Source: Candidatus Altarchaeum sp.
GTDB lineage: Archaea > Altiarchaeota > Altiarchaeia > Altiarchaeales > Altiarchaeaceae
Assembly: GCA_018260615.1 (NCBI GenBank)
Contig: JAGWDQ010000023.1
Span: 1-12,879, forward strand
Direction: 5' to 3'
DNA length: 12,879 bases
Shown: piece by piece, positions 1-12,879 of the stretch
Layout of the letters: each line of letters starts with the position of its first letter
Position numbering within the stretch: the stretch's first letter is position 1
The notes under the pieces: model-generated
What the model was told of the DNA's origin: nothing
The model's input: the letters and a program-made list of their open reading frames with translations, nothing else
Databases searched by the model: none
Position numbers and translations under genes: made by a program

Positions 1-54
1 TTAATTAATAATTTACAAGAATATAAGTGGCCTACTTTCATATGCTACATAACC
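1..54 (-). mobile_element. Probable terminal end of an insertion sequence that continues beyond the left window edge
   Basis: On the minus strand the AlbA-family ORF loses homology exactly after ELIVN (family continues NALIHRDY). The sequence switches to GGTTATGTAGCATA (revcomp of 41-54), which matches 11 of 14 bases of the IS6-family IS257/IS431 end GGTTCTGTTGCAAA. The partner end and transposase are not in the window. Confidence 0.45.
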
Positions 55-918
55 ATTAACAATCAATTCTTCAAAGACCTCTCGTGGAATTTCCAAACGC
101 CCCGGGCTATTAAAACTTTTTTCAACCTGAACTACATGGAGATTTCTTATAATAAAATTCATCGTTTTTTCAAGTATTTCCACAATGTTTCCTTCAAACG
201 GACCTGCTTTGTCGCGAAATTCTGTGCCCGAAATTTCATTTCCTACAAACGAAACACACAGAACTGTAAACATCGGCTTGTATCGTTGCGGATTTTTTCC
301 AAATAAAAGCAGCCCGGATAATGTCAAATTTTCACCTTTTGCAAAGCCCATGTTATTTAAAATTTGCGGGAGTAATTGATTCAATGTATCAAGACCTTTT
401 CCTGTTTTCTTTTGGACAAAATCCCTGAAGACATCAATATTAATATCGTGAAAAGTACTATTTACAACCTGCTCTTCATCGGCAGCAAGATTACCGCTGC
501 TCTGAAGCATCCGCAACAATTCATCATTAGATACCACTTTCCTTTTACCGGAACCGTTCTTTACCCAGATAATTCCTTTGTTATCTCTGTATGGCTTATC
601 GCTGCCTTCTTTTATACGGACGAAAATCAATGTCTGCTCATTTACCGAAACCTGCTCGGTAAAAATTGTGACTGGACTTTTAACATTGTCGGAAGCAGCA
701 TTTGCCAATAACTGATTGGTTGCCTGTATTTCACCATAAGACAAACCGTTTAAGTCCCCTGTTTTATCATTAACGCCAATTATTATTAATCCTCCATACG
801 AATTGGAAAAAGCAACCATTTCTGTTGCAATGCTGTATGCATCGTTTACTCTTTCTTTAAACTGAACGGTGCTGCTCTCCCCTCTTGCAATTACATTTAG
901 CAGTTCTATTGGTTTCAT
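13..918 (-). pseudogene. AlbA_2 (Schlafen-like) domain / RecG-C-terminal-like (HATPase_c_4) protein, C-terminally truncated
   Basis: N-terminal AlbA_2 motif (RGESSTVQFKE...MVAFSNSYGGLIIIGVND), then LTLSGLLLFGKNPQ and LEIPREVFEELIVN. It ends with the unrelated tail GYVAYESRPLIFL instead of the ALIHRDY...SPG...RNP...GTG region present in the paralog at 4816-6219. Confidence 0.8.
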
Positions 919-987: not shown

Positions 988-1038
988 TTAAAATCCGAAT
1001 TTATCCCACTTTTCATCAACCCTTTTCTTTAATTCTTT
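988..1038 (-). repeat. Diverged duplicate of the UbiD/MqnL gene 3' end (relic reading KELKKRVDEKWDKFGF*)
   Basis: 991-1037 aligns to 2829-2875 at 41/47 nt (offset 1838). Translation matches the gene's EIKKRVDEKWDKFEFG* at 13 of 15 residues and ends in its own TAA (988-990). Confidence 0.9.
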
Positions 1039-2807
1039 TTACACCCTACCTTTTCATATACTTTTACTTCTTTATCTCCTTCACACATCTTGCTACCGCT
1101 TATTTCAACAAAGTCAACATCTTTTGAGAAATTTATTTCTAATGTGTAATTTTTTGTGTTTTTTGTTAAATTAGAATTTTCTTCGGGCTGAAAAATATCT
1201 AAAAACATCCTTATGCCGCTTTTGTTAGCGTCTTCGTAATTTATACCATAAGCATTTAAAATTACTGCTTTCGGATTATTGCATTTGTCTATTGAAAGAT
1301 ATAGCGTTTTATTTTTACATAAATTTTCTGTTTTTCCTCCATAAACCTTCCACGAAATATGGAAATTTTTAGTTTCGCTGCCACTTCCCACATATTCATA
1401 TTTATAAATTTCATCAATCGGATCATTGGCTACTTTGGAGTTAAATTTCATAAAATAACTTGATAATGAAAATGTTCCATTTCCGTATGTCTCATCATCT
1501 TTATAACAAACATCAAAACATTTTGTATATTCTGCCTTGCACTTGTTAGACATATACGCATCAATGGATTTTTCAAATCTACATGAATACTGTGTCCCAT
1601 TTATTTGTTTAATTTCGTATTTATCGCATTTTGATAAATTGAATACCTCAATTTTTCCCAAATTTCCGGAAATTTCAAAAATAACAAGATTGTCTTTATT
1701 GGAAAATACTGCCATAGTTTGATTTTTTATTAAAAGGGTTGAATTATCCATCGCAATTTTCGTTTCTTTTTGTAAAAATTCAAGGAGTTTGGATGTATCA
1801 TTTAATTTTTTATCCAATGTTTCAATATAATACTTGTCTCCATCAATGGCCTTTAAAATTCTAACGTAATCTGATGTGTACTCAATATCATAGTACCATG
1901 TATATGCACCATACCGACAAGCAGATATATTGCTTTCATTCCGCCAGCCATAACGATACCAGTCATAATCCTGAACCAAATCATCATTAAACTTTATCAA
2001 CATGGAATTGTTTGTAATATTTTTGACAACCCCTTTATCTATAATTTCATCAATTGTAAATAAGCAGGCACTTCCATTTATTAGCTTTGGCTTTAAATAA
2101 TTCTTTGTTATTGTTAAATTCCTGATACATTTATTACCTTCTTCTATATCTATACACCCATAAATGGACTTTAAAATTATCTTTTCGGCATCTGTATTAA
2201 ATCCAAAAGCGTTATTCCAGCCAATATCAAGATAGCAAAAAAATGGTGGTTCAGTTACTGAAATATCTCCAAATATGCCGTAAATTATTAAAGTGTTATT
2301 TTCTTTCTTTATATGCACGGGTGCAAATGTCCCAAAATAAAGTCCCATAAATCCTTTGCTCATATCAACATAATATTCGGGAACATCGTCATAAAAATAC
2401 CACGATAAATTTGAATAATTTCCATAAGACGCATACATCATATATACTTCATCATCAGAAGGATGACTACAACGGGAAAAACAATAATGATTACAGTCCA
2501 AAGGTGTTGAAAAATTTGTAAAATTTGACAATGAAGATGCTATTATATTGGATGGAATAAGATGTGTAATATTTTCATAGGCAATATTTTCATCATAAGT
2601 CAAATTTATACTTTCACTTTGGGTCAAATTTATACTTGCGTTTTCGGTTTTGTTTAATGTTAATTCTGTCTTTGTTAAATTCATACTCTCATTTTCTTTT
2701 GAATATGATTCCGGTGCTTTTTTGGATTCGGAATGAAAATAAAATAAAAAAATACAAATACATAAACACAAAATTCCTACCAAAATCCACAAATTTTTAT
2801 TTTTCAT
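1029..2807 (-). CDS. Hypothetical membrane-anchored, Cys-rich, sequon-rich surface protein (592 aa)
   Basis: Long ORF. Basic N-terminus plus hydrophobic segment (LWILVGILCLCICIFLFYF), about 29 N-X-S/T sequons and about 20 Cys by hand count. No family recognised. Confidence 0.8.
   Translation of the reverse strand: MKNKNLWILVGILCLCICIFLFYFHSESKKAPESYSKENESMNLTKTELTLNKTENASINLTQSESINLTYDENIAYENITHLIPSNIIASSLSNFTNFSTPLDCNHYCFSRCSHPSDDEVYMMYASYGNYSNLSWYFYDDVPEYYVDMSKGFMGLYFGTFAPVHIKKENNTLIIYGIFGDISVTEPPFFCYLDIGWNNAFGFNTDAEKIILKSIYGCIDIEEGNKCIRNLTITKNYLKPKLINGSACLFTIDEIIDKGVVKNITNNSMLIKFNDDLVQDYDWYRYGWRNESNISACRYGAYTWYYDIEYTSDYVRILKAIDGDKYYIETLDKKLNDTSKLLEFLQKETKIAMDNSTLLIKNQTMAVFSNKDNLVIFEISGNLGKIEVFNLSKCDKYEIKQINGTQYSCRFEKSIDAYMSNKCKAEYTKCFDVCYKDDETYGNGTFSLSSYFMKFNSKVANDPIDEIYKYEYVGSGSETKNFHISWKVYGGKTENLCKNKTLYLSIDKCNNPKAVILNAYGINYEDANKSGIRMFLDIFQPEENSNLTKNTKNYTLEINFSKDVDFVEISGSKMCEGDKEVKVYEKVGCKKN
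2599..2637. repeat. 15-bp direct repeat at 24-bp period inside the surface gene (SINLT x2)
   Basis: GTCAAATTTATACTT at 2599-2613 and 2623-2637, each copy encoding an NLT sequon. Confidence 0.7.
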
Positions 2808-2822
2808 TTTTGTGTTAAAAAT

Positions 2823-4292
2823 TTACCCAAACTCAAATTTATCCCACTTTTCATCCACCCGTTTCTTTATTTCTTCGCTCATTTCAGCAACCTCTAAATT
2901 TAACTCTTTATTAACCTCTTCTTTCCACTTCCTCGTTGCATCTATTCCCATTTTTGAGGATAAAAATTTAAATTCCGACGCATTTTCAAGTGCATCTGCA
3001 GGAGCATTCTCTATAATAACCACATCCCTTTTTGGCTCAACCCTGCTGCCCGTAACCCATAAGACATCTTCAATATTCTGAACATTTACATCCGCATCAA
3101 CAACAATAATTATTTTTGTAAACATCATCTGTCCAAGCCCCCAAAGTGCAAACATAACCTTTTTTGCATGCCCGGGATACTTTTTGTTTATAGAAACAAC
3201 ACACAGATTATGAAATACGCCTTCAACCGGAAGATTAATGTCGTTAATTTCCGGAATCAAAATTTTTATAAAAGGAAGAAATAACCGCTCCGTTGCCTTT
3301 CCGATATAAGCATCCTCCATCGGCGGAATTCCCGTAACCGTTGCAGCATAAACCGGATTTTGTCTGTGGGTAATGCAAGTCACATGAAATACGGGATAAT
3401 AATCAACAGAGGAATAATAGCCCGTATGGTCTCCGAAAGGACCTTCCAACTTTCTTTCCCCGGGATTGACATAGCCCTCAAGCACTATTTCCGCATTTGC
3501 CGGAACTTCCATATCAATTGTTTCGCATTTAACGAGCTTTACACTTTTTTCCCTTAGCAATCCTGCAAAAAACACTTCATCAAAATTTTGCGGAAGCGGT
3601 GCCGTTGCCGCATACATACCTGCGGGCTCGCATCCGATTGCAACAGCCACCTCTAATTTTTTATTAAATTTTTCCGCCCTGCTATAATGTTCCGCTCCGT
3701 CCTTGTGGATGTGCCAGTGCATTCCCGTTGTGTTTTTATCAAAAATTTGCATGCGGTACATTCCGACATTTCTCATTCCTGTTTCAGGGTCTTTTGTAAA
3801 TACCATCGGCAATGTTATAAATCTCCCCCCGTCATCAGGCCATAATTTTAATACGGGAAATTTGAACAAATCAACCTTGTCTTCATTTATTATTACTTCT
3901 TTACATTTCCCGCTTTTAAATGTTTCCGGAAAATACGAAGAAAAGTCCTTTAATTCCTTCAGGAGATGCAGTTTTTCAAAAAAGCCGCCCGGCTTAAATT
4001 TAAGAAATTTTAAAAATTTATCACCGAATGATTCAAAATTTTCTGTATTCAGTGCTAATTTCATCCTTTCGGTTGAGCCAAAAATGTTTGTAACGACGGG
4101 AATTTCGGAAATTTTTCCGTTATTTTTAACATTCTCAAAAAACAGAACTTTGCTGTTTTCTCTGTATTTTCGTGACACACGGGCGGTTATTTCTGAAATT
4201 TCAAGCTCGCAATTGACCTCTTCTTTTATGTGATGGACTAAATTTCTCCTTTCAAGTTCATCCAGAAATTCCCTTAAATCGTCGTAAGACAT
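2823..4292 (-). CDS. ubiD: UbiD-family prFMN-dependent decarboxylase, menaquinone (futalosine pathway, MqnL/SCO4490) type
   Basis: Motifs DLREFLDELE, WPDDGGRFIT, RNVGMYRMQ, GMHWHIHKDG, EGPFGDHTGYYS, KMGIDATRK. mqnA lies nearby on the same strand. Confidence 0.93.
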   Translation of the reverse strand: MSYDDLREFLDELERRNLVHHIKEEVNCELEISEITARVSRKYRENSKVLFFENVKNNGKISEIPVVTNIFGSTERMKLALNTENFESFGDKFLKFLKFKPGGFFEKLHLLKELKDFSSYFPETFKSGKCKEVIINEDKVDLFKFPVLKLWPDDGGRFITLPMVFTKDPETGMRNVGMYRMQIFDKNTTGMHWHIHKDGAEHYSRAEKFNKKLEVAVAIGCEPAGMYAATAPLPQNFDEVFFAGLLREKSVKLVKCETIDMEVPANAEIVLEGYVNPGERKLEGPFGDHTGYYSSVDYYPVFHVTCITHRQNPVYAATVTGIPPMEDAYIGKATERLFLPFIKILIPEINDINLPVEGVFHNLCVVSINKKYPGHAKKVMFALWGLGQMMFTKIIIVVDADVNVQNIEDVLWVTGSRVEPKRDVVIIENAPADALENASEFKFLSSKMGIDATRKWKEEVNKELNLEVAEMSEEIKKRVDEKWDKFEFG

Positions 4293-4328
4293 TTTAAATT
4301 TTATTAATTTTTAAATTGCAGAGATTTA

Positions 4329-4356
4329 AAAATCTCCGAGCGTAAGCGAGGTGATT
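4329..4356. repeat. REP-like imperfect hairpin, second copy at 12684-12711
   Basis: AAAATCTCCGAGCGTAAGCGAGGTGATT vs AAAATCTCCGAGCACAAGCGAGGTGATT: 26/28 identical, with both differences in the loop. Confidence 0.8.
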
Positions 4357-4364
4357 AAATTTTA

Positions 4365-4467
4365 GGTAGTGACTAATAGGTAATGCTCCCTAAAATAAAT
4401 TGGGGTGATAATACATTAAAAGTTGAGCGTGTGTGTCAGCATTTATCATTACTTGTTTATCACTACC
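4365..4467. mobile_element. 103-bp MITE-like element with IS1-type terminal inverted repeats
   Basis: Left end GGTAGTGACTAATAGGTAATG and right end (revcomp) GGTAGTGATAAACAAGTAATG match at 16/21, with the first 8 bases identical. No coding capacity. No perfect target-site duplication. Confidence 0.7.
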
Positions 4468-4742
4468 AACTTTTTGTTAACCATTTTGGATGATTCCTTC
4501 AAGGTCTTTCCAAGATTGTAAAAATTTAGGGAATTCAAAATAACTCCCGGAGGATATGTTTTATTTTTCATTCCTCTCTTACTAAACTTTCTATTACAGT
4601 CCTTACAATAAAACAACTGCACGGGACCAAATTTTGTTTCTTGTTTGCCTTTCCGGATTACATTATTTCCACTGCATTTTGGACATAAGACATCGGTTTT
4701 TATTTCAATAACATAAATTTGTTGATTTTTATTACTCCACAA
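4449..4742 (-). pseudogene. Truncated IS1/IS6-type transposase N-terminus (Zn ribbon + start of HTH)
   Basis: CPKCSGNNVIRKGK...QLFYCKDCNRKF Zn-ribbon followed by YPPGVILNSLNFYNLGKTL. No DDE domain. The last six codons and the stop come from the MITE end. TTG start with an in-frame stop immediately upstream. Confidence 0.75.
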
Positions 4743-4771
4743 TCATCACTTGTGGTTATTATGTTTGTTTT

Positions 4772-4816
4772 TAATCGTGCAATTAATCGTTCCCTAATCG
4801 TTCCATAATCGTTCCC
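4772..4816. repeat. 11-bp tandem repeat TAATCGTTCC(C/A) x3 plus one degenerate copy
   Basis: Copies at 4784-4794, 4795-4805 and 4806-4816, with degenerate TAATCGTGCAAT at 4772-4783. It begins at the stop codon of the upstream AlbA_2 gene. Confidence 0.9.
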
Positions 4817-6219
4817 TAAAACTTTTTTATATATCTGACTGACCTTCCTTTACCCTCCTGCGTTATCAGACCTTTGTCCAGGAGATCATGGATATCTATG
4901 TATGCTGCTTTCTTTCCGACATTGTTCAGTTCCTGATACTTCTTATTCGTGATATATGGATTCTCGGTGAAATAGTGAAGGCATGCAACCTGTCGGTCAT
5001 TTAACTCAATACCTCGTTTTTTCATTTCGGGAATTAATATCCCTTCCCCACTGGATCTGAAAATTACCCTGGTTTCTAATCCTCCGGTTTCAAACTCCGG
5101 TTCAGGTATGCCCCATTCATTACACAAATCGCGGACAAAATAGATTCCTGTGCCGTACTTTTCTATATAACCAATCTCTCGCATCAACTGGCACAAAATA
5201 GGATTTCTTGGCATATGAAGTGGTTTTTGCGGCGTTACTCCTTCCGGGAATCTACCTGGACTTATAATCTCAATCCGGGAATCAAATATAAATATCCTTA
5301 TGTCCGAAGGGATTGTGTACTCTCTGTGAATCAATGCGTTCAGGATTACCTCTCTAACTGCTTCTGCAGGATATTCCAATTTGTCTATTCTTCTAAAAGA
5401 CAAACCAGTTCTAAAACCAAACAATCGCACATTTTTTTTGACAAATCCCTCTGCCTGTTTGAGCATTTCCCACAATGTACCTGAACAATCTATGCTGTCT
5501 ATTGTGGTTCTTGATAACTCATCACCTCTGAACCGTGCACATAAAATTCTGAATGGCATGAATATCTGTGGATTTTTACCAAAAAATAGAATACCTGAAT
5601 TAGTGATCACAACCTCTTTATTTACTATTTTGGCACAACAGATGTTTCTTAAAAAATCACTAACATTCATCTGAGAGGGATGTGGAATTTTCCTTGCAGA
5701 AAATCGTTCATCCAGAAACCATTTGACCTTTTCCTCATCAATATCTTTCATACATGCGCCTTCACAAATTTCAGAGTCCCAATATTTATTCCTCTTTTCC
5801 ATAATAATTCTTTCAATTTCTTCCGGAGGGATTACAGGATTTTCTGTTCCGACTCTTTTGTAAGCAACTCCATCTAAATAATATAATTTATTAAGTCCTT
5901 CTTTTACTGTAACTTTTATAACCTTCTCCCTGCCGTCCCCATGAACAGTAATTTCCGGAGTTATTTCCGGCTTTATCTTCTGCCTGACTTTCTGAGATAT
6001 TGATCTTAAGGTGGGGTCAGAGACCTGCTGTCCGACCAGGGTCTTATTATCAATTCCGAAATATACTGCCCCGCCCTTGTGGTTCAAAAAAGCACAGAGC
6101 GCTCTCATGCCCTTTTCTAACTGGGCGGTTGATTTCTTAAATTCCACTTCCTCGGTTTCACCGTTTTCTATAATTTCATTGAGTTCTTTGAGTTGTTTTT
6201 GATTCGTTTTTTGATTCAT
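4816..6219 (-). CDS. AlbA_2 (Schlafen-like) + HATPase_c_4 (RecG C-terminal-like) + winged-HTH protein (467 aa)
   Basis: ENGETEEVEFKKS...AFLNHKGGAVYFGID; YPAEAVREVILNALIHREY; IEIISPG; PRNPILCQL...IEKYGTGI; C-terminal LNDRQ...ITNKKYQEL...DLLDKGLITQEGKGRSVRY. Confidence 0.9.
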   Translation of the reverse strand: MNQKTNQKQLKELNEIIENGETEEVEFKKSTAQLEKGMRALCAFLNHKGGAVYFGIDNKTLVGQQVSDPTLRSISQKVRQKIKPEITPEITVHGDGREKVIKVTVKEGLNKLYYLDGVAYKRVGTENPVIPPEEIERIIMEKRNKYWDSEICEGACMKDIDEEKVKWFLDERFSARKIPHPSQMNVSDFLRNICCAKIVNKEVVITNSGILFFGKNPQIFMPFRILCARFRGDELSRTTIDSIDCSGTLWEMLKQAEGFVKKNVRLFGFRTGLSFRRIDKLEYPAEAVREVILNALIHREYTIPSDIRIFIFDSRIEIISPGRFPEGVTPQKPLHMPRNPILCQLMREIGYIEKYGTGIYFVRDLCNEWGIPEPEFETGGLETRVIFRSSGEGILIPEMKKRGIELNDRQVACLHYFTENPYITNKKYQELNNVGKKAAYIDIHDLLDKGLITQEGKGRSVRYIKKF

Positions 6220-6260
6220 TCTTTATAAACTATAAGATATGTATGATTATTATAAATTAA
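6220..6260 (-). promoter_or_regulatory. Putative TATA-box promoter for the AlbA_2 gene, overlapping the mqnA stop
   Basis: Minus-strand TTAATTTATAA (6250-6260) and TTTATAAA 2 nt before the ATG, same layout as 919-956. Confidence 0.35.
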
Positions 6261-7165
6261 ATTTTCAGAAAATTCAACTTCGGAACATCAGAAATTATCC
6301 CATACCTTTTCGCATACTCATAAAAATTTAACAATGCATCTGTCTCTTCTTTTCCAAAATTATAAGATAAAGACGAAATGTGAAATTTGACACTTTCCCT
6401 TTTTAAATTTCCTTTTACCTCGTCCATAACATTCTCAAAATTTTTGTATGCATAATTGAGCGAAGTCGTGAGCAATTCAGAAAACCATTTTATTTCTTTG
6501 TACTTTTCTTCTGCACTTTTCTTATTTATAAGCCATAACGCATAAACCATACCTTTTTCAGGCGAGGTTATTTTATTCCACTCCTCCCCCAAGTCAATCA
6601 CATTTAAATTTTTAAATTTTTCCCCTGCTGCAATTCCATCATCGCCGATAAATAAAGCCGCATCGCAATTTTCAAAATCGCAAGATTTTGAAAATATCCG
6701 AACATCAGTGAGGTTATTTTCAAAATCGCAAGATTTTGAAAATATCCGAACATCAGTGAGGTTATCATCAAATGTCCCGGACGAATTGGAAATTTTAAAT
6801 TTTGCATCAATCCCTTTGACTTTGAGAATTATTTTCAGCATTGCAACCGAAGTAGCGGAATTTGATGGCAGACAAACGGACGAAATTTCTTCCGGATGTT
6901 TCTTTGTGATTAGAATTATGCTCCCGGTTTTTCCTTTTGCACTTATTGAAAAATTTGGCAGTATGAGAAAATTTTCAGGATGTCTGGCATAGATAATTGA
7001 AGATACCGGTGCAATGTCGAGCTCCTCGTTCAAAACCATCTCTCCGAGTTGCGGCGGAAATGCGGAGTAAAATTTAAGGCGGGCTTTAAAATTTCCAAAA
7101 TTTTTTTCAATGTAATGATATGGAAATACAATATTTCTAAAAGGTGTGCTTCCTATTTTTAACAT
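6257..7165 (-). CDS. mqnA: Chorismate dehydratase MqnA (futalosine pathway) with an internal repeat insertion
   Basis: Motifs LKIG...N, PPQLGEMV...ELDIAPVSS, SISAKGKTGSIIL, SATSVAMLKIIL, DAALFIGDD, DLGEEW, MVYALW are typical of MqnA/COG1427. Confidence 0.88.
   Translation of the reverse strand: MLKIGSTPFRNIVFPYHYIEKNFGNFKARLKFYSAFPPQLGEMVLNEELDIAPVSSIIYARHPENFLILPNFSISAKGKTGSIILITKKHPEEISSVCLPSNSATSVAMLKIILKVKGIDAKFKISNSSGTFDDNLTDVRIFSKSCDFENNLTDVRIFSKSCDFENCDAALFIGDDGIAAGEKFKNLNVIDLGEEWNKITSPEKGMVYALWLINKKSAEEKYKEIKWFSELLTTSLNYAYKNFENVMDEVKGNLKRESVKFHISSLSYNFGKEETDALLNFYEYAKRYGIISDVPKLNFLKI
6668..6765. repeat. Perfect in-frame 48-bp tandem duplication, each unit carrying an 11-bp-stem palindrome
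   Basis: Unit period is 48 (CAAAATCGCA at 6673 and 6721), encoding NLTDVRIFSKSCDFEN x2. Each unit contains TTTTCAAAATC-GCAA-GATTTTGAAAA. Confidence 0.95.
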
Positions 7166-12580: not shown

Positions 12581-12604
12581 ACACAAAGACACAAAGCCAC
12601 AGAG
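12581..12604. repeat. 8-bp tandem repeat ACACAAAG x2 + CCACAGAG, with an inverted partner at 12870-12878
   Basis: GACACAAAG (12588-12596) is the exact reverse complement of CTTTGTGTC (12870-12878). The right side is cut by the window edge. Confidence 0.6.
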
Positions 12605-12606
12605 TA

Positions 12607-12858
12607 TTTTAAAATCAAGAGATTTTAAAAAAATTGAAAATCTCATTTAAAAATGCTTAAAGCATTTTAAATACGAAGTATTTAAAATCTCCGAGCACAA
12701 GCGAGGTGATTTTTAAAGATTGAAAATCTTGCAGATTTTCAGTACAGTTTTCAGTATTTAAAAATCTCACAGATTTTTTTAGATTGAAAACTTGTAGTTT
12801 TCAGTATTTAAAAATCTCACAGATTTTTTAAAGATTGAAAATTCTCAAAGAATTTTCA
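12607..12858. repeat. Array of nine short hairpins (REP/BIME-like)
   Basis: Hairpins at 12607-12630, 12650-12668, 12664-12688, 12684-12711, 12721-12741, 12760-12778, 12785-12803, 12810-12828 and 12836-12858. Eight have perfect 8-11 bp stems with 3-4 nt loops; 12684-12711 is imperfect. Confidence 0.9.
12746..12841. repeat. Near-perfect tandem duplication (period 50 bp) within the hairpin array
   Basis: AGTTTTCAGTATTTAAAAATCTCACAGATTTTTT..GATTGAAAA at 12746-12790 and 12796-12841. Confidence 0.9.
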
Positions 12859-12879
12859 GTATATTTCTCCTTTGTGTCC

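Follow-up and report, generated by a model that had tools for sequence, protein, structure and literature searches.

We analysed the window, by which we mean the entire 12,879-nucleotide (nt) contig JAGWDQ010000023.1 (contig C23 below) of a Candidatus Altarchaeum sp. genome bin (G000; 2.2 Mb in 148 contigs), where the gene ubiD is followed by a single orphan gene (the cargo) and then by what looks like a second, displaced copy of the last codons of ubiD itself (the relic). The features on which the argument turns, in the order in which they are read on the minus strand, are the following:

2823-4292, minus strand: ubiD, 489 amino acids (aa), intact, with KFEFG before its stop codon; Pfam UbiD_N, UbiD and UbiD_C
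2829-2875, minus strand: repeat copy A, where the working ubiD gene has its 3' end; derived-looking states CGG, GTG and GAG
2808-2822, minus strand: spacer of 15 nt from the ubiD stop to the cargo ATG, as read from the sequence
1029-2807, minus strand: cargo, encoding an orphan protein of 592 aa, with its stop codon at 1029-1031
1028-1037, minus strand: right (far) junction, where AAGAATTAAA, the end of the cargo with its TAA stop, matches AAGAAATAAA of ubiD at 9 of 10 nt
991-1031, minus strand: relic B, the putative displaced ubiD end, made of its last 13-14 codons with KFGF and then TAA; ancestral-looking

The ubiD product matches the TIGR03701 equivalog, 'menaquinone biosynthesis decarboxylase', with 611 bits against a cut-off of 496, and the gene is 85-89% identical in nucleotides to its orthologs in three relatives, G001, L022 and L023. 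A repeat search found the 3' end of the gene twice in direct orientation, at 2829-2875 and at 991-1037, the two 47-nt copies being identical at 41 positions (87%) and spaced 1838 nt apart. Translated on the minus strand, the working ubiD end reads EIKKRVDEKWDKFEFG and the relic ELKKRVDEKWDKFGF, each closed by a stop codon. The copies enclose exactly one open reading frame (ORF), that of the cargo, in an insert of about 1.79 kb (under 20 kb), and the original prediction, in which a ubiD-end repeat brackets one orphan gene, is thus borne out, translations included. Within the 2.2-Mb genome the only match to the relic is the ubiD end (E = 2.7e-9), and comparison with the ubiD ends of congeners gives E values of 1.4e-12 (G001) and 1.4e-14 (L022), which together exclude a chance origin of the repeat. 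The whole arrangement is present on one 5450-nt unitig of sequencing run X1 and on one 3948-nt unitig of run X2 (the latter with 9 single-nucleotide polymorphisms, SNPs), at a depth of about 2100-2700x; both runs belong to one groundwater study, and a third run, X3, contains next to nothing of the stretch. Since single unitigs of two runs cross both copies, the duplication is not an assembly chimera, a possibility that the original prediction had raised. A separate promoter could not fit into the 15-nt spacer, outside the ubiD tail, and the cargo is probably co-transcribed with ubiD.

The site is empty in two relatives, G001, a genome of the same genus with a ubiD protein 88% identical, and L022, the metagenome contig CCXY01000056.1 (90%). 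Both have a single copy of the repeat, at the ubiD end, and the gene order mqnA, ubiD, ATP-grasp, with a gap of 1-8 nt between ubiD and the ATP-grasp gene, and homology to L022 stops exactly at the ubiD stop codon (2823). Empty sites of this kind had been predicted, and they exist, but the gene that follows ubiD in them is the ATP-grasp gene and not, as foreseen, the AlbA_2 gene.

Comparison with the relatives also indicates which of the two copies is native. Their ubiD proteins are 485-503 aa long (489 in both G001 and L022) and end in KFGF plus one variable residue (N, E, R or D); in the genome studied here it is the relic that has KFGF, while the working end has KFEFG. The two copies differ at six sites, five of them inside the relic proper, and at all five the relic agrees with three or more of the four relatives compared (G001, L022, L023 and the outgroup G029), from which the working end differs. 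Counted over 47 nt, the relic is identical to L022, L023 and G001 at 44, 43 and 43 positions, the working end at 40, 41 and 38, so that the relic, and not the working terminus, is closer to congener ubiD ends. From these sites, few as they are, we infer that the working end is derived and foreign-looking and the relic ancestral-looking. Because the relic, which is under no constraint, has changed less than the constrained working end, the working tail appears to have been imported together with the cargo from a diverged lineage, as the original prediction had it when it proposed that DNA with the surface-protein gene entered at the ubiD 3' end and replaced the working terminus. The same pattern is awkward for an insertion in situ with a long target duplication, in which staggered breaks about 41-47 nt apart, followed by gap filling, would have produced two identical copies that diverged later: the unconstrained relic would have kept the commoner state at five of five sites while the constrained working copy acquired all the changes, and the copies, which differ by 13%, are as distant as the ubiD genes of different species in the genus (11-15%). 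At the same time, the topology is that of a class described by Furuta et al. (PMC2853133), in which a direct repeat of more than 30 bp, aligned to a single-copy target of an empty-site genome, flanks an insert without a mobility gene, and 46-bp repeats over gene 3' ends are typical of that data set.

The cargo protein has a single hydrophobic segment at its N-terminus (residues ~6-24), a predicted membrane anchor or signal, together with 20 cysteines and 29 N-x-S/T sequons, against 7.8 +/- 2.5 in shuffled sequences. Its gene has a GC content of 28.8%, compared to 38.4% for ubiD. Searches of Pfam, NCBIfam and PADLOC gave no match to the cargo, including none to restriction-modification (RM) or defence families, and its AlphaFold2 model, built from a 4-row alignment, is poor (mean predicted local distance difference test score, pLDDT, of 43). 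Only two relatives, both distant, were found among 1.84 billion representative proteins. The cargo is encoded on a further contig, of 19.6 kb, as well. A further homolog, 65% identical over the last 84 codons, is a fragment in Candidatus Altarchaeum sp. CG2_30_32_3053 (G003; contig C17, L103:1501-1773), where it lies directly behind the gene for a 304-aa membrane protein; the cargo family has therefore moved or decayed at a second locus. We looked there for a duplicated end of the neighbouring 304-aa gene, as a second scar, and found none, and a wider scan of genome contigs for the family returned only this known fragment. A fair reading of these sequence features is that the cargo is a predicted heavily glycosylated surface or secreted protein of a tiny family, so far found only in Altiarchaeum genomes and further contigs.

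At the far side of the insert, the cargo and ubiD share a 10-nt microhomology, AAGAA[T/A]TAAA, which contains the cargo's own stop codon. The sixth difference between the repeat copies, a T at 1032, occurs in no ubiD. The G003 fragment ends in CKKD-TAA with no ubiD sequence after it, and the 574-aa cargo homolog P0002 likewise ends in CKKD, which shows that the cargo ORF ends at its native stop. The first six nt of the repeat (1032-1037) are most likely the cargo's own 3' end, merely similar to ubiD, and the ubiD-derived relic would then span about 991-1031 (41 nt), somewhat less than the 47-nt repeat that had been predicted and that is itself present. The switch from cargo to ubiD is located within TAAA (1031-1028), a placement to within 4 nt that is possible because a second, unrelated copy of the cargo's end is available. 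Judged from these alignments, the far junction is a microhomology junction and not the edge of an attachment (att) site.

This bears on the part of the original prediction that saw the repeats as attL/attR-like and the insert as a cassette mobilised in trans. Under such a site-specific explanation the 47-nt ubiD-like segment would be the att site, and integration and excision would be the work of a recombinase whose gene lies somewhere else in the cell or on a helper element. The two copies do have a 20-nt core in common without a mismatch, GATGAAAAGTGGGATAAATT, and the cargo is one gene with tight spacing. The substitute gene end also resembles the integration of phage 21 and e14 into icd of E. 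coli, where the gene receives from the insert a new tail, altered mostly at silent sites, and its native tail remains on the far side as a pseudo-end. Phage 21 and e14, however, encode their own integrase and have a defined att core, neither of which was found here. Family scans of the insert ORF and of the contig revealed no recombinase in or near the insert (that none lies inside had been predicted correctly, its single ORF having no family match), and the genome has one match to the tyrosine recombinase family PF00589, on contig C79. A viral contig collection contained no match to the cargo family and none to the shared 20-mer. Moreover, the outer edge of the supposed att site is the microhomology at the cargo's own stop region, and some 80-120 other sites in the genome, described below, involve unrelated gene ends, 33-400 nt in length, a set that no single site-specific enzyme could recognise. 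The excision circle foreseen by the original prediction did not show up either: Logan contigs contain no join of ~1010 to ~2849 and no circle junction, although contigs drop rare variants and rare excision could escape. Taken together, a site-specific cassette seems to us quite improbable. A single promoterless gene behind a fixed point, with no recombinase inside, is also what integron cassettes (IntI, attI, attC) look like, but unlike in integrons there is no adjacent integrase, platform or array here, and the flanks are direct repeats of a host gene end and not folded attC sites. No IntI-type integrase is encoded on the contig, and none of the 25 longest inverted pairs listed has an arm at the cargo-relic junction, with attC not searched by a dedicated model.

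When the genome was compared with itself for two-copy repeats (length 30-400 nt, identity 78% or more, spacing 50 nt to 15 kb), 118 local pairs were direct and 4 inverted. The direct pairs are 33-400 nt long and 78-100% identical (median 92%), and in 79 of them one copy lies at the end of an ORF of at least 100 aa, with the gene mostly outside the insert. The ubiD pair itself is below the search threshold, and the counts are therefore lower bounds. For 71 pairs of the gene-end kind we counted 487 differences between working copy and relic, distributed over codon positions 1, 2 and 3 as 129/82/276. Dropping pairs with the relic in a long ORF and pairs with repeats longer than 150 nt left 51/38/123, a third-position share of 0.58 (z = 7.6 against one third, and z = 4.0 against the 0.445 expected if a relic decayed neutrally beside a constrained working copy). 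The scar share of 0.57-0.58, a little lower than the baseline of 0.65-0.69 among ubiD orthologs, implies that the copies diverged mostly as coding sequence of two separate alleles, and that some decay was added later. The original prediction had argued from synonymous divergence that both ubiD copies evolved as real gene ends, and the genome-wide third-position bias supports this for scars of the kind as a class, but the ubiD locus by itself (2:1:3) offers too few differences. There, three synonymous changes among five differing codons are indistinguishable from chance, and we dropped the synonymous-site argument for that locus alone.

The genome-wide share also counts against the long target duplication, being higher than the ~0.445 expected for neutral relic decay, while the 98-100% identity of 13 of the 79 gene-end pairs speaks for it. 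At the ubiD locus we regard it as rather unlikely; a displacement of the resident gene end fits better, because it accounts for two copies that are separate alleles and for a far junction formed at a microhomology. The scar type is real but common in this genome, and it is not a dedicated mobile cassette system.

Building on the repeat, the empty sites, the ancestral-looking copy, the microhomology, the missing recombinase and the genome-wide recurrence with its codon-position bias, we think it moderately probable that the locus is an integrase-free 'gene-end displacement' recombination scar, left by the homology-anchored import of a foreign ubiD tail together with the cargo. What follows on the donor, on the order of the joins and on whether the DNA was linear or circular is a reconstruction. 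The donor would be a diverged Altiarchaeum lineage whose DNA carried a ubiD tail directly followed by the surface-protein gene. At the near end, this DNA would have undergone ordinary homologous recombination with the resident ubiD, in or just upstream of the last 40-47 nt, and its far end would have been attached, by an illegitimate join at the 10-nt microhomology, to a point some 41 nt short of the resident ubiD end. The outcome would be a whole ubiD with an imported tail, KFEFG and stop, the cargo 15 nt behind it and the native KFGF tail stranded beyond the cargo, with no dedicated recombinase needed. Alternatively, a looped-out circle may have re-integrated in Campbell fashion through the short gene-end homology; a re-integrated circle and a linear import give the same product and cannot be told apart here.

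Several observations weigh against this displacement reading. The polarity at the ubiD locus comes from five sites only, and the four changes specific to this genome in the last 45 nt of ubiD, compared to a gene mean of 1.4 per 45 nt, are only a mild enrichment, with 12% of windows reaching four. We looked for a donor tract in ubiD upstream of the repeat (beyond 2875) and saw no clear run of changes specific to this genome. The presumed donor allele, a ubiD ending in KFEFG and stop, was not found in any other genome or metagenome contig. In a genome-wide sample of 23 sites compared with the congeners G001-G003, the relic was closer at 12, the working copy at 9, and 2 were ties, with no uniform direction. 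Crossovers at varying points would give such a result; the sample is also noisy, some of its 'orthologs' probably being matches to repeat elements, and we did not use it as evidence of direction. Finally, the relic lacks the last codon, which is present in all relatives, and the DNA beyond it is not the ancestral neighbour, which means that there is at least one further, unexplained junction at ~990.

Two described systems come close to this locus. One is insertion with long (variable) target duplication, for which Furuta, Abe and Kobayashi 2010 (PMC2853133) cite Nobusato et al. 2000. As in the class of Furuta et al., a direct repeat of more than 30 bp encloses a short insert free of mobility genes, the target is single-copy in a genome where the site is empty, and the repeat overlaps the 3' end of a gene that stays intact, as theirs often do. 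Their class, however, consists of bacterial RM genes (PMC2853133), whereas the cargo here is a surface protein in an archaeon without any RM match, and no archaeal case passed their filter (PMC2853133). Their repeats are also nearly identical (for example 44/46), whereas the copies here are 13% apart in a pattern that points to two alleles. The other system is the displacement of 3' ends by homology-facilitated illegitimate recombination, proposed for the effector-immunity arrays of type VI secretion (T6SS) and for Rhs loci (Kirchberger et al. 2017, PMC5361080, a paper that in turn cites Jackson 2009, de Vries and Wackernagel 2002 and Prudhomme 2002). Both there and in our reconstruction here, homology in a conserved part of a gene serves as the anchor, a new 3' end arrives with downstream cargo, the far join is illegitimate, and the old 3' end is pushed downstream as an orphan, with no integrase. 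Two marks of such displacement are found at the ubiD locus, namely an illegitimate junction at the far-side microhomology and a relic that corresponds to the recipient's own end, the latter on a small sample of sites but in agreement with the codon-position bias across the genome. On the other hand, what is displaced in Rhs and T6SS arrays are long toxin domains that differ in function and come with immunity genes, at polymorphic-toxin loci, unlike the 13-14 codons of a housekeeping enzyme displaced here, and about 100 unrelated core genes are hit in this one archaeal genome.

The ATP-grasp gene that follows ubiD at the empty sites has its ortholog (72% identical) on another contig of the genome, C66 (2820-4025), with an AbiEi/AbiEii pair and hairpin repeats upstream of it. 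Two further features belong to the interval between ubiD and this gene:

13-918, minus strand: AlbA_2-family ORF, 301 aa, downstream of the relic; Pfam PF04326
L248:1022-2518 (C66): AbiEi/AbiEii pair, intact, next to the ATP-grasp gene on its upstream side; Pfam AbiEii, PADLOC 143 and 202 bits

The AbiEi/AbiEii pair is not at that position in G001 or L022, and a third ubiD relic, sought in front of the ATP-grasp gene on C66, was not found. When a 467-aa paralog encoded elsewhere on C23 was aligned, its residues 12-300 fell on the 13-918 ORF and its residues 293-324 on C66:110-205. The 13-918 ORF is, on this alignment, probably the front part of a longer gene that was cut by a repeat element at the contig end, and since the gene seems to continue on C66 across that element, C23 and C66 are probably neighbours. 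Inverted copies of a ~26-nt sequence (GGCCTACTT...GCTAC...AACC) stand at both contig starts (window 1-60 and C66:60-130, L248); the C66 version has an identical 32-nt copy near the end of contig C70, word depth is elevated at the start of C23, and a similar sequence comes after ubiD in L023. These contig-start sequences look like the ends of a repeat element that splits the AlbA_2-family gene, which would account for the contig break. If the two contigs adjoin, accessory DNA in layers, 5.6 kb of it or more, now fills the old junction of ubiD with the ATP-grasp gene. In L023, the ubiD ortholog (L023:2940-4451) encodes 503 aa, 14 residues more than the others, and is followed by hairpin repeats and unrelated genes, with no relic behind it and no ATP-grasp gene within 6 kb.

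A layered accessory islet of this make-up (AlbA_2-family gene, repeat element, AbiEi/AbiEii) is the kind of setting in which the locus might be the decayed remnant of a larger integrated element, be it a provirus, a plasmid or an island, that lost its integrase and all but one gene. The repeats, however, enclose exactly one intact, tightly spaced gene with no gene fragments or integrase remnants, homology to the relatives breaks off right at the ubiD stop, and the genes of the islet are found outside the repeats. We consider such a remnant very improbable.

Between mqnA and ubiD there is a 1.94-kb insertion (4293-6256) with the gene for the 467-aa paralog (AlbA_2 and HATPase_c_4) and a 97-aa ORF for an InsA-like zinc ribbon. 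L022 and G001 lack this insertion, their mqnA and ubiD being 22-40 nt apart, and no gene-end duplication was found to flank it. Inside mqnA, a perfect tandem hairpin-repeat unit of 2 x 48 nt lies in frame at 6668-6763; the product has 302 aa here, against 277 in both G001 and L022, and around 6693-6765 the homology to L022 is broken. A dispersed family of hairpin repeats occurs at 4310-4356 and 12665-12711, and also within 12600-12860. At 4176-4342, summed contig word depth rises about tenfold, to ~25,000-28,000 from ~2100-2700, which indicates that the hairpin repeat element is multi-copy in the community. The nine SNPs of the X2 population are spread over 3.9 kb, with seven of the eight listed clustered in ~290 nt of ubiD (3807-4098), which suggests a small patch of homologous recombination between co-occurring strains.

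The ubiD locus adds a further case to a scar type that this genome contains very often, and a clean one, with two empty-site relatives, an outgroup for polarity and a junction placed to within 4 nt. In the literature searched we did not find a description of such gene uptake in archaea. Together with the genome-wide counts, the locus supports the view that uncultivated Altiarchaeum gains accessory genes beside its core genes when diverged alleles undergo general recombination, with no enzymes of mobile elements taking part. A bolder idea, which we hold to be doubtful, is that spare core-gene ends act as portable addresses, such that bracketed cargo could loop out and re-enter any related Altiarchaeum genome at the same gene by general recombination. 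If true, this would amount to an integrase-free exchange of cassettes run by the cell's own recombination machinery, and the surface-protein gene behind ubiD would be one such circulating unit, which may let the cell alter its surface when viruses or symbionts exert pressure on it.

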